A DNA stretch of 19,288 nucleotides from a virus. This document shows, piece after piece, positions 1 to 15,073 of this stretch. The notes beneath the pieces were generated by a model. The model was not told the origin of the DNA. It worked only from the letters and a program-made list of their open reading frames with translations, and did not search any database. The stretch's first letter is position 1, and each line of letters opens with the position of its first letter. Position numbers and translations under genes: made by a program. The stretch lies in the UHGV virus genome UHGV-1843802. One strand, given 5' to 3'.

Positions 1-260
1 ATCGCAGGCATACCATCAAGTTCTGCCTGTCTGCGAAGCAGCGCCCATACCCGACGATAACCATACGTGGGCAGCTCTCCGATAACATGGTGTATACGGA
101 GAAGCACATCCGTATCATCTGAGTGACGGCTGCGGCGACCATCTTTCCAGTCATCGGTTCGTCTGAGAATTACGTGCAACTGCGCACGCGACACCCGGAG
201 ACAACGGCTGACTAAGCTTACTCCCCATCCCCGGGCAATAAGGGCGCGTGCGCTATCCAC
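1..260 (-). CDS. insD: IS2 transposase OrfB (InsD), N-terminal part only; truncated by the window edge; normally made as an OrfAB fusion by -1 frameshift
   Basis: The reverse complement of 1-260 translates from a GTG at 260 as [32 protein letters not shown]...[27 protein letters not shown], matching recalled InsD. The frame is open to the window edge. Confidence 0.8.
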
Positions 261-583
261 TTTTTTGCACGCCCGTATTCAACGGCTTCTTTAAGGAGTT
301 CATTTTCCATCGTTTTTTTGCCGAGCAGGCGCTGGAGTTCTTTAATCTGCTTCATGGCAGCAGCAAGTTCAGAGGCAGGAACGATCTGCTCTCCTGCGGC
401 CACAGCAGTAAGACTTCCCTCCTGGTATTGCTTGCGCCAGAGAAATAACTGGCTGGCTGCCACACCGTGTTGCCGGGCAACAAGGGAGACCGTCATTCCC
501 GGTTCAAAACTCTGCTGAACAATAGCGATCTTTTCCTGTGTAGTACGCCGTCTGCGTTTCTCCGGTCCTAAGACATCAATCAT
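218..583 (-). CDS. insC: IS2 transposase OrfA (InsC), helix-turn-helix DNA-binding subunit
   Basis: The ATG at 583 (rc of 581-583) gives a 121-aa protein, [24 protein letters not shown]...[18 protein letters not shown], matching recalled InsC. The ORF track begins further upstream at a non-ATG codon, which I do not accept. Confidence 0.9.
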
Positions 584-674
584 CTGCTCTCCAATGACTA
601 GTCTAAAAACTAGTATTAAGACTATCACTTATTTAAGTGATATTGGTTGTCTGGAGATTCATGGGGCCAGTCTA

Positions 675-11065: not shown

Positions 11066-12724
11066 TCAGCGCATCAGAATTGGCTTACCGACGATTCGGC
11101 GAGCTGTACCGGTCGGACAAACAGACCAGGACACTTCCCACAGATCGATGTCCTTTTGGACAACCTGAACAACATATGGATCTTCGCCCTGGGACTTGTC
11201 ACGTGGAGTAACCAGCGCACCGGCTGCAACGTAACGGTCAAGCAATTCAGTCATTGCTTTCATTAGCGTTTCTTTGGTAATGCCATCCGGTTCGTGCTTA
11301 ATCGCCTGAGCTACTTCATAGAAATCTCTGGCGATGGCGTTCATCAAGGAAGACACATGCTGGAATCGCAGATAGTTGTTTTTGCTGTAAGTTGTTAAAG
11401 AGTCGTCAATGTAAACGGACCCGTCAGCAGCAACTGAAACTGGATTAATGCGCGCAAGAACGAACGCTTCACGATCAACTGCACCGATATTTGGAATTCG
11501 GGCAATGTTCTGTCGATCAATAATCGCGCGTGATATACCTGCCGGTGCGTAATGCCAACCACCAACATCCGGTACCAGCGCTACCCCTTTTGCTTTTGCT
11601 ACGAATGCGTCGCAACTAATGCCATAGACGACATTCATCCCAGTGAAGGTATCTCGGCAGGAGAGCGGGAAGTAGTAACGGCTTGGTTGATGTGAGCCGC
11701 CAAAACTATGGCTTTTCGCTTCTGAAATAGCGTTTTCAGGTGTCTGGTTGCCCTTCAGGTCATAGAACATGTCTACGCGAACGTCTTCAGCCAGCTTTTT
11801 GATTGCGGCTAAGGCGGATGCGTCATAACAGCCCAGTGACAGCAATGCGGTGTAATTAACCTCTGAAGCTTCGAGAACCTTTAATGCTTCCAGATAGTCT
11901 TCAGTGTCAATTTCGGACAGATCTCCATCAGTACCACCTTCAAAAGCTACATCCTCAAAAATGAGTTGAGCAGCGGATGCTTCTGCATTATCTGCCAGCA
12001 CGGCACCAATGCGAGTGGACTGGCTTTCAAGCAGTGTCGGAATCCATGCTGGTTGGCCCATGTCGTTAGTGCCTTCTGGATTGAAAGACACTTGGTGGCT
12101 TTCCAGCACCTCAATGGACCCATCGGTTTGTTTTTCTTTCAGCGTCAGCGTAAAGAGTTCGCTTTCTTCATCATCGCGAGTTAGTGATAACGTGCGATTT
12201 TGAGATGCATCACCATCTTTGATGAAGAATAATGCCTTCTCTTCACCTTTAATCTGGGGCGTCTCTTTGGGTGTGAAGGACACTGATTGAGTCGTTGCAG
12301 TTGAAGCAACACCAACGCTTAATGTGTCACCTGGATTTACTGTGGTTTCAGTAGGTTCAACGGAAAGTTCTTTGCTCGCCTTTGCCGCTTTTGCTTTGCC
12401 CACAACGGAAACAGAAATACCCGGCACCTTCATGTCTTTAGCGCAAACTCGAACGACATATCCGGAGCCGCCTTTTACTGCACGCTCCACGTGGCGGTAT
12501 GGTTCAAATGCCGCTCCCAGACGAGGGTGAATCGGTGAACCTAATACGCTTTGATAAGTCGTATCGTCAACTTTCAGTACCTTACCCGGTGCGCCACGAC
12601 GCGATATTACAAGCCCAGCAAAGACGGATGCGCCACCGCTGGTATTGGTGAGGGTAGCGTCAGCATTTACTGACATTACAGCAACGCCAGCTGCCTGCCC
12701 TACCGAAAAACTAATCTTATTCAT
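11066..12724 (-). CDS. Putative contractile tail sheath protein, 552 aa
   Basis: ATG at 12724. Size and position (first gene after the capsid and decoration genes and an attenuator hairpin) fit a sheath. The C-terminal third (...GVALVPDVGGWHYAPAGISRAIIDRQNIARIPNIGAVDREAFVLARINPVSVAADGSVYIDDSLTTYSKNNYLRFQHVSSLMNAIARDFYEVAQAI...) has the spacing pattern I associate with sheath C-terminal domains such as P2 FI. Unverified. Confidence 0.5.
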   Translation of the reverse strand: MNKISFSVGQAAGVAVMSVNADATLTNTSGGASVFAGLVISRRGAPGKVLKVDDTTYQSVLGSPIHPRLGAAFEPYRHVERAVKGGSGYVVRVCAKDMKVPGISVSVVGKAKAAKASKELSVEPTETTVNPGDTLSVGVASTATTQSVSFTPKETPQIKGEEKALFFIKDGDASQNRTLSLTRDDEESELFTLTLKEKQTDGSIEVLESHQVSFNPEGTNDMGQPAWIPTLLESQSTRIGAVLADNAEASAAQLIFEDVAFEGGTDGDLSEIDTEDYLEALKVLEASEVNYTALLSLGCYDASALAAIKKLAEDVRVDMFYDLKGNQTPENAISEAKSHSFGGSHQPSRYYFPLSCRDTFTGMNVVYGISCDAFVAKAKGVALVPDVGGWHYAPAGISRAIIDRQNIARIPNIGAVDREAFVLARINPVSVAADGSVYIDDSLTTYSKNNYLRFQHVSSLMNAIARDFYEVAQAIKHEPDGITKETLMKAMTELLDRYVAAGALVTPRDKSQGEDPYVVQVVQKDIDLWEVSWSVCPTGTARRIVGKPILMR

Positions 12725-12761
12725 GCTGGTTCTTATCCTCTAAAGCGAGAGAACGAGGCAA

Positions 12762-12786
12762 GGCTACCCACGGTTAATGGGTAGCC
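12762..12786 (-). terminator. Perfect 9-bp GC-rich stem-loop just after the Ig-like gene stop; candidate attenuator or partial terminator
   Basis: GGCTACCCA (12762-12770), loop cggttaa, TGGGTAGCC (12778-12786). On the minus-strand RNA the stem is followed by UUGCCUCGUUCUCUCGCUUU, a pyrimidine and U-rich tract. Confidence 0.4.
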
Positions 12787-12791
12787 TCTGA

Positions 12792-13070
12792 TCAGGATTC
12801 GCTTACCGTGAAGTTGTCGCCTACGGTTACTTCTTTCGTAGTTGGTTCAACACTGACGGCGCTTACGCTTTTAGGTGCCTCCCTAACAGTGACCGTGCAC
12901 TGTGCGGTTTTATTGCCGTCATTAGTTTTGATTGTCAGCACTGCCTGCCCTGCCTTAAGAGCGGTACATGTAGTGCCATCAACCTGGACAATTTCAGGGT
13001 GATCGGACTCAACAGTGAAAGATTTGTCTGTTGCGTCAGATGGCGAGATAGTTACTTGAATGTTTGCCAT
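12792..13070 (-). CDS. Ig-like (Big_2-type) domain protein, 92 aa; likely capsid decoration or accessory virion protein
   Basis: ATG at 13070 with a GGAG ribosome-binding site 7 nt upstream. The alternating beta-strand pattern VTISPSDATDKSFTVESDHPEIVQVDGTTCTALKAGQAVLTIKTNDGNKTAQCTVTV is typical of bacterial Ig-like group 2 domains. Confidence 0.6.
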   Translation of the reverse strand: MANIQVTISPSDATDKSFTVESDHPEIVQVDGTTCTALKAGQAVLTIKTNDGNKTAQCTVTVREAPKSVSAVSVEPTTKEVTVGDNFTVSES

Positions 13071-13081
13071 TCTTTTCTCCT

Positions 13082-13110
13082 GAACACCCCTTATTCAGGG
13101 GCGTGTTTTT
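13082..13110. other. Stem-loop (about 9 bp with one bulge) followed by a T5 run on the plus strand; on the coding minus strand it is a stem-loop without a U tract
   Basis: GAACACCCC, loop ttattca, GGGGcGTGTT, then TTTTT at 13106-13110. Its geometry is that of an intrinsic terminator for plus-strand (antisense) transcription, or a stabilising or processing hairpin in the late mRNA. Confidence 0.35.
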
Positions 13111-13113
13111 GCC

Positions 13114-13218
13114 TTACTTCTGCTTTGTTTTTTTCTGTGCCTTTGAAGTGTTCGCGGCGATAGTTTCACCTTCATCTACGTCAAGTGACGTTGGTGATAC
13201 CGACACGTTCGCCACCAT
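13114..13218 (-). other. 34-codon ORF in the -1 frame, overlapping the capsid-like gene stop; candidate -1 frameshift extension of that protein
   Basis: The capsid-like gene ends ...GAA AAA AAG TGA. The heptamer A AAA AAG is the classic -1 slippery site. The -1 frame continues VMVANVSVSPTSLDVDEGETIAANTSKAQKKTKQK to a TAA at 13114-13116. Confidence 0.25.
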
Positions 13219-14915
13219 CACTTTTTTTCGTTAACCTTGCCTGACAGCATGTCGATAGCACCTTCTTTGGCACGAGTCAGACGCAGGCGGGTGAAGTAGT
13301 TTTCACCGTTGCGAGGATGTACTTCGTTGATGGCACTGCCCCAGAGAGTGGTACGGTTAACGAGAGACGGATTGGTTTCGTGCACGTAAGGGATTGCAGG
13401 GACTGCATCACCAGCAATCAGACCGGCTTTACCGATGCCTTCGCCACGCCCATAGAAGAAGATGTCATCCAGCCCGAAGTCATATCCCTGTGCCTGGAAT
13501 TGCTCACAGACAGGTTGCGGCACTTCGTAAATACGAATCGTGCCAAACAGGGTGCCGATGTACTGTACATACGGCGACTGAACGTAACCTGGTGCGATCT
13601 GGAAGTGCTGTGGAGGCAGAGAGCGCAGGAAGTTCGCGGCGTCACCACCAGCAAAGCCGCCACGAATACCCGTTGTCAGGGTGCGATTTGCCATTTCCTG
13701 AGACAGAGCGTTTACTACGTGACGCAGGAGGCCGACCCAGGACTCATAGTTTTGAGCTTCCGGCAGAGCCACATCAAATTCACGACCATAAACGGTATGG
13801 AATACTAGGGTGCGCAGACGCATGATGTCAGTCTCATGGGAGATCCAGTTACGCATCGCGGAGAACTGAAGTGCCGCTAATTCAAGGCCGTGCTCACGGC
13901 TTAAATCGGATGCGGACATTACCGTGTGTTCGGAGGCAATTACGTACTGGGACGGACGAACTTCGTACTTACGCATAGCCTGGTTGATCACCGGAATCAG
14001 GCTTGGATTGCGCTCGATGTTAATTTCGACCTGAACAGCAATTTCAGTACCTTCTGGCGGAGCCTGGGTAAATGTAATGTCAATGACACCAGTGTCATAG
14101 GCAACTTTGGCAGTCGCTGAGAAAGCATTACCTTTGCTGTCTTTAGCATTGAAATAAAGGTTGCCATCGCCGTCGTCAACTTTGGACGGTTTGCGGTTGA
14201 TCAGCAGTTTGTTATAACCAGCGCGAAGCGGGCAGGATTGTCCCTCAAAATTTTGGATGTCGAACTGGAAGGTTTTGGTGCTGCCATCCCCTTTAGTGGA
14301 AAGGGTATACAGGCGCTTCATTTGAGAATAAACACCAGCTGACTGCATATTCAGTTCGTCACCTTGTTTGAAGGTGCCGAATTTTGTGCCTGCTACGTTG
14401 ACCAGTTCATAAATATTTGACTCGTCACGATCACAAGGAACAAAAGTACAGGCATCACTGGTAGCAGCGCCCAGAGAGGCAGGCAGAATTAGAGCAGCAT
14501 ATTGAGCAACTTTCATTACGCCGTCAGAGCTACGCATTGATTGCGCGACAGACTCAAACATTGCCTTACCCGTGCCTTCATGGGTATCACTGGCACATTC
14601 AGTCATCAGGCGTTCAAGAGCCATGTGTGCGTTCGCCAGGATGTCACTTGCCGGGTAATGACCATGTTGACGTTTATACTCATGCAGAGACATAGCCCAC
14701 CCACCAGTGATCTGACGAGCGACCTCTGGATTTACGCCTTCAAACATAGGCACTTTCTGGATTGCTTTATCCAGGTTTTCCATCATTACTGCCTGGTCAG
14801 CAATCATGTTGCCTGCTGCATCGGTGGTCGGATCGACGGTCATAGCCATGACGCTTGCCGCCCGATTCATAATCTCGCGCTCGCGATCACGAGCTGGCTG
14901 AATGTTTTTATTCAC
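13218..14915 (-). CDS. Putative major capsid protein, 565 aa (large structural protein, first gene of the late operon in this window)
   Basis: 1.7-kb ORF with a GTG start at 14915 (AGGG about 8 nt upstream); the first in-frame ATG is at 14870. It is followed by a possible frameshift extension, a stem-loop, an Ig-like gene and an attenuator hairpin, the layout of a highly expressed capsid and decoration pair. The alternative is another major structural protein. Confidence 0.5.
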   Translation of the reverse strand: MNKNIQPARDREREIMNRAASVMAMTVDPTTDAAGNMIADQAVMMENLDKAIQKVPMFEGVNPEVARQITGGWAMSLHEYKRQHGHYPASDILANAHMALERLMTECASDTHEGTGKAMFESVAQSMRSSDGVMKVAQYAALILPASLGAATSDACTFVPCDRDESNIYELVNVAGTKFGTFKQGDELNMQSAGVYSQMKRLYTLSTKGDGSTKTFQFDIQNFEGQSCPLRAGYNKLLINRKPSKVDDGDGNLYFNAKDSKGNAFSATAKVAYDTGVIDITFTQAPPEGTEIAVQVEINIERNPSLIPVINQAMRKYEVRPSQYVIASEHTVMSASDLSREHGLELAALQFSAMRNWISHETDIMRLRTLVFHTVYGREFDVALPEAQNYESWVGLLRHVVNALSQEMANRTLTTGIRGGFAGGDAANFLRSLPPQHFQIAPGYVQSPYVQYIGTLFGTIRIYEVPQPVCEQFQAQGYDFGLDDIFFYGRGEGIGKAGLIAGDAVPAIPYVHETNPSLVNRTTLWGSAINEVHPRNGENYFTRLRLTRAKEGAIDMLSGKVNEKK

Positions 14916-15073
14916 GGTTAAGCCCTAAATTCGGGCGCGGCGTGAAGGTTCTTTTGACGGGCTAACAATACCTACTTTGTGATTTAGTCAATAGGTTTAG
15001 TAAAATAAAATCTATTAACACGCATGTTGTTATGTGATTTAATTTTAGTTTTCTAACACAAAACATTAGAGTT

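Follow-up and report, generated by a model that had tools for sequence, protein, structure and literature searches.

The 3′ end of the major capsid gene in a P1-like phage-plasmid raises the question of whether this gene specifies one capsid protein or two. The stretch analyzed here, hereafter the window, comprises 19,288 nucleotides (nt) of the viral genome UHGV-1843802, and from 12700 to 15000 it shares 99.3% identity with the P1-like plasmid prophage Escherichia phage D6. The genes of interest all lie on the minus strand, in the order capsid, 'orf50', orf49 and tail sheath. The capsid gene closes on the slippery heptamer A_AAA_AAG, and an open −1 frame follows. We consider it likely that a programmed −1 ribosomal frameshift takes place at the 3′ end of this D6-type major capsid gene. 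The best reading of the sequences is that frameshifting would yield a minor capsid species bearing part of an immunoglobulin-like (Ig-like) domain, which may act as a docking strand for Orf49, the product of orf49.

The elements on which this reading depends are as follows.

13218..14915, minus strand: major capsid protein gene (homolog of P1 gene 23; D6 orf51), 565 codons, with its stop TGA at 13220..13218
13221..13227, minus strand: slippery heptamer A_AAA_AAG, made up of the last two sense codons and the third base of the GAA before them
13114..13221, minus strand: −1 frame extension, 35 codons (13221..13117) and the stop TAA (13116..13114)
Within 13114..13221, minus strand: 'orf50' of the D6 GenBank annotation, 34 codons, entered there as a separate hypothetical gene

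A slippery heptamer at the end of the capsid gene

The gene that hosts the heptamer is a bona fide major capsid gene. It shares 99.3% DNA identity with the D6 gene annotated as major capsid protein and belongs to phrog_1014, and its product is 44% identical to P1 gp23, matching the solved P1 Gp23 chain (9ukm_A) at an E value of 1e-164. P1 heads have T=13 symmetry and contain 775 copies of Gp23, which adopts an HK97-like fold with an extra I-domain; the list of P1 head components includes no separate decoration protein (PMC12810830).

The open reading frame (ORF) ends AAC GAA AAA AAG TGA on the minus strand, and the heptamer stands in the X_XXY_YYZ phase of the zero frame, its first A being codon position 3. 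A preliminary description of this locus had read the same gene end, GAA AAA AAG TGA, as a canonical heptamer, and sequence and phase bear it out; the span that it gave, 13114-13230, is exact, and the extension, put there at 34 codons or about 36 residues, is 35 residues long. After a slip, the −1 frame reads GTG ATG GTG ... AAG and encodes 35 new residues, VMVANVSVSPTSLDVDEGETIAANTSKAQKKTKQK, containing strands A and A′ of a Big_2 Ig-like domain, a G-E-T turn and a Lys-rich tail. The expected transframe tryptic peptide is VMVANVSVSPTSLDVDEGETIAANTSK, preceded by K, whereas a start at the orf50 ATG would instead yield MVANVSV....

The bare motif means little. The window contains 10 copies of AAAAAAG where 7.4 would be expected, which agrees with the caution in the preliminary description that it might be there by chance; what places the capsid heptamer beyond chance is its conservation in relatives, described below. 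Only two copies lie in the slippery phase of a long ORF, namely the capsid site and one at 260..266 within a copy of the insertion sequence IS2. The latter, in IS2 orfA (ORF 218..628), falls in the orfA/orfB overlap, the classical frameshift site of that element, with the −1 frame open to the window edge.

Properties of the host also bear on the motif. Where a stimulator is present, few heptamers shift more efficiently in E. coli than A_AAA_AAG; the host lysyl-tRNA(UUU) renders it highly shift-prone, and E. coli genes contain markedly fewer in-frame copies than expected (PMC4066793).

Conservation of the heptamer and the −1 frame

Close relatives were taken from viral contigs, plasmids and metagenomes and form four D6-clade lineages with capsid protein identities of 87-100%. 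Deeper relatives came from a metagenome scan with a capsid-protein profile, one look-up and a plasmid search. About 120 plasmids in PLSDB contain the stretch spanning the capsid gene end and orf49. A scan of genome contigs returned one locus only, and a protein search with the transframe C-terminus returned gene fragments only. Three deeper lineages are particularly informative.

Enterobacter type (L095; plasmid NZ_CP074151, L127): capsid identity 80%; capsid protein ending ...NSSASNPGETTDEEEKKSE, encoded at its end by GAA AAA AAG TCG GAG TAA; −1 peptide VGVTGVSVSSDGQELSEGDSFAIE up to its stop; then a hairpin, a ribosome-binding site and an orf49 homolog
Klebsiella michiganensis (L124): about 85% identity over the C-terminal part of the capsid protein; gene end GCA AAA AAG TCC GAG TAA; −1 peptide VRVTGVIAEPAENVEVSVGEKLATTTKPKATRAKRKETPQ up to its stop; downstream arrangement as in the Enterobacter type
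L096: capsid identity 74%; capsid protein ending ...GQVNGTSGTVVEGVTLSPASITVSAGDEITAGNTKKDS, its zero frame carrying the homologous fragment; then the same hairpin and an orf49 homolog

The heptamer is invariant in all 11 distinct D6-clade sequence variants, and in the Enterobacter and Klebsiella lineages as well. Six frameshift lineages (four D6-clade, Enterobacter and Klebsiella) therefore keep the heptamer together with an open −1 ORF, down to about 80% capsid-protein identity, and every relative that carries the downstream Ig module has both, except the in-frame L096. Within the D6 clade, GAA AAA AAG is followed by TGA, TAA or TAG, and the −1 ORF is open at the same length throughout. One variant lacks a single nucleotide of a second A7 run. 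In the Enterobacter type, a 14-residue extra linker precedes the heptamer, which stands two codons before the stop. The heptamer thus persists while the preceding codon, the identity and position of the stop, the linker and nearly all of the extension sequence change. Across lineages the extension peptides share only about 30-40% identity, yet each can be aligned as a Big_2 A/A′ fragment. The preliminary description had proposed, as its first check, that relatives be examined for the heptamer and the −1 ORF, and these lineages show both to be conserved.

The same description had named relatives without the heptamer as evidence that would count against a frameshift. Such relatives exist, and each either has the peptide fused in frame (L096) or lacks the whole Ig module. 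In those without the module, namely P1, Leclercia, Citrobacter, Pantoea and a dozen soil contigs (65-67% identity), the capsid protein ends in a short in-frame tail, the heptamer is absent, and only a hairpin stands between the capsid gene and the sheath gene, as the gene order of P1, Leclercia and Citrobacter shows.

Several further observations concern the gene end in individual relatives. The second A7 run, which lies in the extension (CAG AAA AAA ACA; window equivalent 13127..13133), is A6 in L015/L045 (IMG/VR 2531839449_000024), where the basic tail becomes ...KKQSRSKAKTRP before the stop; this is either a real variant or a homopolymer error. In the E. coli plasmid NZ_CP031917 (L125; 1500..2400), RefSeq calls a 599-codon 'capsid protein' that runs into the extension and mimics a frameshift product. 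We rejected this as an in-frame fusion and regard it as an assembly artefact, since single-base homopolymer deletions throughout the stretch also break orf49.

A separate candidate is found in the metagenome contig Ga0157364_1030525 (L110; 2480..2760), whose capsid gene is 59% identical to the one here. The gene ends GGA AAG TAG with G_GGA_AAG in phase, a 9-base-pair GC-rich hairpin (z-score −3.6) begins 6 nt later, and a 72-codon −1 ORF rich in Ala, Lys, Asp and Glu precedes the sheath gene; a similar low-complexity tail is in frame in L107. The sequence of L110 suggests another capsid-end frameshift, independent of the first, within the P1/D6 group, and the occurrence of a signal at the same place suggests that capsid-end recoding recurs in the group.

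A predicted stimulatory hairpin and constraint on synonymous sites

Downstream of the heptamer, two hairpins are predicted.

13154..13215, minus strand: predicted stimulatory extended hairpin of 62 nt, separated from the heptamer by a 5-nt spacer (UGAUG)
13084..13104, minus strand: GC-rich hairpin ACGCCCC-TGAATAA-GGGGTGT in the intergenic stretch that separates the stop of the extension from the ribosome-binding site of orf49

The 62-nt hairpin is composed of a basal helix, GUGGCGA/UCGCCGC, and a second helix, GGUAUCACC/GGUGAAACU, both of which occur in the minimum free energy (MFE) fold of every variant. In the window its MFE is −23.4 kcal/mol, with a z-score of −3.4 and 0 of 200 shuffles folding as well; the 84-nt context gives a z-score of −3.9. 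Across five variants the folding free energies range from −18 to −23 kcal/mol, with z-scores of −3.4, −3.1, −2.6, −1.4 and −0.7. The helices are kept in all variants, 93.8% of cells being paired, and substitutions are mostly apical. Three of the four substitutions in helix 2 keep or improve pairing, and the single change in helix 1 converts a G-C to a G-U pair. Other lineages have hairpins of their own 9-10 nt downstream of the heptamer. Rfam returned no match in 12600-13400 at E values up to 1. The 62-nt hairpin is compatible with these data as a prediction based on conservation and thermodynamics, and is not proven.

The preliminary description had pointed to a stem-loop a little downstream of the extension. 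That stem-loop exists, at 13104..13084, starting 9 nt past the extension stop; at 116 nt past the heptamer it is too far away to stimulate slippage. It is kept through compensatory changes in E. marmotae-type relatives (AGCCCC/GGGGCT), and every P1-group relative (P1, Leclercia, Citrobacter) has a GC-rich hairpin of this type after its capsid gene. A T-run accompanies it only on the plus strand (CCCCTTATTCAGGGG CGTGTTTTTG), and only on that strand does it score as terminator-like. From its sequence it looks like an intrinsic terminator of antisense transcription rather than of the late operon.

The extension shows a marked deficit of synonymous change. Relative to L003, the proportion of synonymous differences (pS) is 0.29 in the extension, 0.66 in the capsid 3′ end and 0.67 in orf49, and suppression across the 105-nt extension compared with its flanks is significant against both L003 (Fisher p 8e-4) and L021 (Fisher p 1e-3). 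Synonymous divergence of the extension is thus less than half that of the flanks, which is the synonymous-site constraint that the preliminary description had asked after. Synonymous (dS) and nonsynonymous (dN) rates between the window and L003 are as follows.

Capsid gene: dS 1.89, dN 0.072
orf49: dS 1.72, dN 0.081
Extension, −1 frame: dS 0.37, dN 0.175

Of the three frames through the extension, the −1 frame shows the smallest dN/dS (0.47), and both of the others exceed 1. The synonymous suppression indicates that the 105 nt are constrained as nucleic acid, as expected for a stimulatory structure.

An Ig-like domain split between two polypeptides

The Ig-like sequence that a slip would add to the capsid protein is part of a domain whose remainder is encoded by the next gene.

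12792..13070, minus strand: orf49, encoding a 92-residue Ig-like protein (Pfam Big_2; phrog_215, 'structural protein with Ig domain')
12795..12875, minus strand: C-terminal end of orf49 (residues 66-92, KSVSAVSVEPTTKEVTVGDNFTVSES), which is a homolog of the capsid extension and forms another incomplete Big_2 start, with strands A/A′

The Pfam Big_2 profile (PF02368) is 79 positions long and has a gathering threshold of 22.8 bits. Orf49 alone scores 31.3 bits, above threshold, and covers profile positions 23-79 only, starting at strand B. The extension alone gives no Pfam hit and supplies only positions 2-22, short of a complete Ig-like domain. When the first 20 extension residues are artificially spliced to Orf49, the match extends over positions 2-79 and rises to 40.6 bits. 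The L095, L096 and L124 lineages behave in the same way, with Orf49 covering 23-79 and each lineage's own extension plus Orf49 covering 2-79. The split point, Big_2 22/23, is identical in the four lineage types tested by Pfam (D6, L095, L124 and L096).

Orf49 ends in a second copy of the missing piece. Its last 25 residues are 42% identical to the extension (hhalign), and when this C-terminal fragment is set before a second Orf49 core, the Big_2 match again covers 2-79 of 79. The fragment is found in all lineages, and no more than one gap is needed to align ten fragments, of which six come from capsid extensions and four from Orf49 C-termini. It is as conserved as the core (dN 0.068, dS 0.88, dN/dS about 0.08), the dN/dS of orf49 being about 0.05. 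A partial domain under purifying selection at the Orf49 C-terminus needs an explanation, and strand complementation in cis or in trans would provide one.

Other comparisons indicate how Orf49 relates to intact domains. An exhaustive profile search placed Orf49, from about position 5 to 89, colinearly within giant tandem Big_2 arrays, which makes Orf49 equivalent to a single repeat period displaced by about 22 residues. Siphovirus tail-tube proteins carry complete, unsplit relatives of the Big_2 domain at their C-terminus. An AlphaFold model of the Orf49 monomer is of moderate quality (mean predicted local distance difference test score, pLDDT, 64); its core, residues 18-63, is better predicted (block-mean pLDDT 73-86 for blocks within 21-60), the N-terminus and linker poorly, and the C-terminal strands moderately. 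The modeled fold matches Big_2 and the Ig domain of lambda gpV.

A serious but tentative possibility is that this split Ig-like domain is reassembled from separate chains, with the frameshift-added A/A′ segment acting as a donor strand that completes the Orf49 core and anchors Orf49 to the head. The conserved split point, the constraint on the Orf49 C-terminal fragment and the ability of either fragment to restore a full Big_2 match are the reasons for proposing it. Hand counting of co-evolution between each lineage's extension and its own Orf49 C-terminal fragment gave no clear signal.

Weighing the frameshift against its alternatives

The anatomy of the site, its conservation, the synonymous-site constraint and the division of the domain can be read directly from the sequences, and together they support the proposal of the preliminary description that a −1 slip would give a minor, C-terminally extended capsid species. 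A number of points weigh against this reading. We found no virion proteomics for D6 in the literature, and the support for frameshifting is comparative only. Heptamers that lack a stimulator reach at most about 10 times a background of 0.055% in reporter assays (PMC4066793), so the yield hangs on a predicted structure. Two of the five hairpin variants (z-scores −1.4 and −0.7) fold no better than shuffled sequences, and no double-sided covariation (compensatory double changes) was found in the 62-nt hairpin across variants. A conserved upstream Shine-Dalgarno-like stimulator was likewise not found; the window has only AAGG 6 nt upstream, which is absent in the E. marmotae type. Such a stimulator is an optional feature, as in dnaX and IS911, and is not obligatory. 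The in-frame fusion is known from a single metagenomic contig (L096). Finally, protein-level constraint on the extension within the D6 clade appears weak, dN being about twice that of the flanking genes and dN/dS 0.47.

This last value fits the alternative that survives best, in which the −1 frame is untranslated. The 105 nt would then act at the RNA level, as a 3′ element of the capsid message in stability, processing or attenuation, with the ORF a relic of an Ig sequence and the heptamer a by-product of encoding Glu-Lys-Lys. Synonymous and nonsynonymous sites are indeed both constrained within the D6 clade, the parts of the peptide that never vary are those encoded by the helix arms, all P1-group relatives have hairpins after the capsid gene, and typical E. 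coli codon usage would produce the heptamer about 13% of the time given E-K-K. However, the heptamer is retained where GCA (Ala) precedes it, where the stop lies two codons later and where the extension nucleotides have been almost wholly replaced. Unlike a relic, the six extensions compared (five frameshift and the in-frame L096) are still Big_2 A/A′ fragments despite 60-70% amino-acid divergence, and L096 carries the fragment in frame. We therefore regard an untranslated RNA element as improbable.

Translation of the extension from its own start, as a separate 34-residue gene 'orf50', is how the GenBank records MF356679 and NC_050154 present it. Such a gene would be reached by termination-reinitiation at an ATG overlapping the capsid stop, with no frameshift, and this overlap is present in the D6-type (TGATG) and L019-type (TAATG) lineages. 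Two other D6-clade lineages, the E. marmotae type and the L021 type, have GCA in place of the ATG (GTA GCA GTG GCG) and yet retain the ORF and the heptamer, and the Enterobacter-type extension (L095/L127) contains no ATG, GTG or TTG between its flanking stops, which makes independent initiation unlikely. There is, in addition, no Shine-Dalgarno sequence upstream, the NCBI Prokaryotic Genome Annotation Pipeline (PGAP) does not call the gene in RefSeq plasmids, the L096 homolog belongs to the capsid protein, and a free 34-residue, two-strand Ig fragment would have no obvious way to fold. The chance that orf50 is a separate gene is accordingly very small.

Transcriptional slippage, by which RNA polymerase would add one A within the A7 run and bring the extension into frame, predicts the same protein as a ribosomal slip. 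The window and the Enterobacter type do have seven consecutive A residues, and the second A7 run in the extension shows the 1-nt length variant noted above for L015/L045. The Klebsiella lineage, however, keeps only A6 followed by G, exactly the ribosomal heptamer, L110 uses G_GGA_AAG with no homopolymer, and a hairpin conserved at a distance of 5 nt is what characterizes a ribosomal signal. Productive transcriptional slippage in enterobacteria usually needs runs of nine or more. This explanation is highly unlikely.

Two further routes were rejected. Stop-codon readthrough joining the extension to orf49 fails since the frames differ in the window, and 1-nt spacer indels switch the frame relation of extension and orf49 among close relatives. 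A bypass like that of T4 gene 60, from the final codon of the extension to a matching one ahead of the orf49 start, has candidate codons in D6 (AAG to AAA) and L095 (GAG to GAG) and none in L096 or L124; we treat these as chance, because they lie inside a ribosome-binding site or an A-rich spacer.

Comparison with known systems

The heptamer of T7 gene 10 is G_GUU_UUC, and the T7 extension has 53 residues. The preliminary description had drawn the parallel with T7 10A/10B, which stands insofar as a minor capsid species arises there through a −1 frameshift near the end of the capsid gene. What T7 adds, however, is not Ig-like (PMC5009743), and in this respect the D6-type gene groups instead with T3 10B, gp5B of Lactobacillus phage A2, Listeria phages A118 and A500, and the MSTV1-like viruses of Methanobrevibacter. 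In all of these, ribosomes slip into the −1 frame just as they finish the major capsid gene, and a single gene gives two capsid species, one of which gains a bacterial Ig-like sequence (PMC5009743, PMC11375127).

Among MSTV1-like viruses, the Ig-like capsid extension is made by frameshifting in some and by direct in-frame fusion in others (PMC11375127), and the contrast between L096 and the frameshift lineages repeats the alternation seen in other viruses (PMC5009743, PMC11375127). The MSTV1 slippery sequence is A_AAG_GAA, compared with A_AAA_AAG here. The main difference lies in what is added. In the T3, A2, Listeria and MSTV1 cases the extension is a whole Ig-like domain, whereas here it stops after about 22 of the 79 profile positions in every lineage, and the remaining strands belong to a separate gene product with a second such fragment.

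E. coli dnaX and the IS3-family elements IS911 and IS2 use the same A_AAA_AAG with a stem-loop about 5-6 nt downstream. The D6-type site differs in having no conserved counterpart of the upstream Shine-Dalgarno-like enhancer of dnaX and IS911. The site here, in contrast to theirs, occupies the last two sense codons of a structural gene, and its transframe product would be a short structural tail rather than an enzyme domain or a truncation.

For the proposed completion of Orf49, donor-strand complementation in chaperone-usher pili offers an analogy only. There, an Ig-like fold short of an edge strand receives it from an extension of the neighboring polypeptide. Pilins lack the C-terminal G strand and are given an N-terminal donor strand, whereas here the N-terminal A/A′ strands are missing and the proposed donor is a C-terminal extension.

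Neighboring genes and history of the region

Two further features follow orf49 in the late gene order.

12761..12787, minus strand: intergenic hairpin between orf49 and the tail sheath gene, AGGCTACCCA/TGGGTAGCCT with loop TTAACCG, read from the sequence; its stem is partly kept in an E. marmotae relative
11066..12724, minus strand: tail sheath gene (homolog of P1 gene 22), by D6 annotation and phrog_1036

Comparison of 12792..14915 with the L019 lineage (L019/L029/L032) gives a dS of 0.38 for the capsid gene and 0.59 for its last 300 nt, with 0.21 for the sheath gene; the extension and orf49 are nearly identical to that lineage (dS 0.04 and 0.015). This mosaicism points to recombination with a breakpoint close to where the capsid gene ends.

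The IS2 copy occupies 1..~680 of the window on the minus strand and is 94-99.6% identical to IS2 in other phage records. It sits within the D6 bplA gene (baseplate J wedge), after about 620 of 1431 nt, and by interrupting this gene probably leaves the prophage tail-defective.

Proposed mechanism and implications

In the proposed mechanism, ribosomes decoding AAA-AAG with two lysyl-tRNAs would slip one base back on A_AAA_AAG, probably slowed by the 62-nt hairpin that begins 5 nt downstream. Slipped ribosomes would miss the TGA stop and append 35 residues, making the capsid protein about 3.7 kDa heavier. The majority of capsid subunits would end ...NEKK and a minority ...NEKK-VMVANVSVSPTSLDVDEGETIAANTSKAQKKTKQK, the added peptide contributing the first two Big_2 β-strands (A and A′), the conserved G-E-T turn and a basic tail. 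Strands B to G would be made separately from orf49, with its own terminal A/A′ copy. We infer a useful slippage rate, stimulation by the hairpin and incorporation of extended subunits into capsids. With 775 subunits in a P1-type capsid, slippage of 1-10% would give roughly 8-80 extended copies.

The fate of the second A/A′ copy may follow one of two courses. The C-terminal fragment of Orf49 might cap its own core, or it might recruit the next Orf49 and so build short non-covalent Ig chains. The frameshift rate would then set the number of anchors per capsid.

D6-type phage-plasmids are common in Escherichia, Salmonella, Shigella, Enterobacter and Klebsiella. Their capsid gene appears, from these comparisons, to be mis-annotated, 'orf50' being either called separately or not called at all. 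Recognizing the frameshift would correct this annotation and add a Gram-negative myovirus to the phages whose capsid Ig extensions are made by recoding. The new element is an Ig domain conserved in two pieces on two polypeptides, with a constant split position in the four lineage types tested. If the two pieces reassemble, they would provide a compact natural split-domain tag for phage display. They would also represent a new mode of decoration-protein attachment, in which recoding supplies the donor strand and the efficiency of slippage tunes its copy number.

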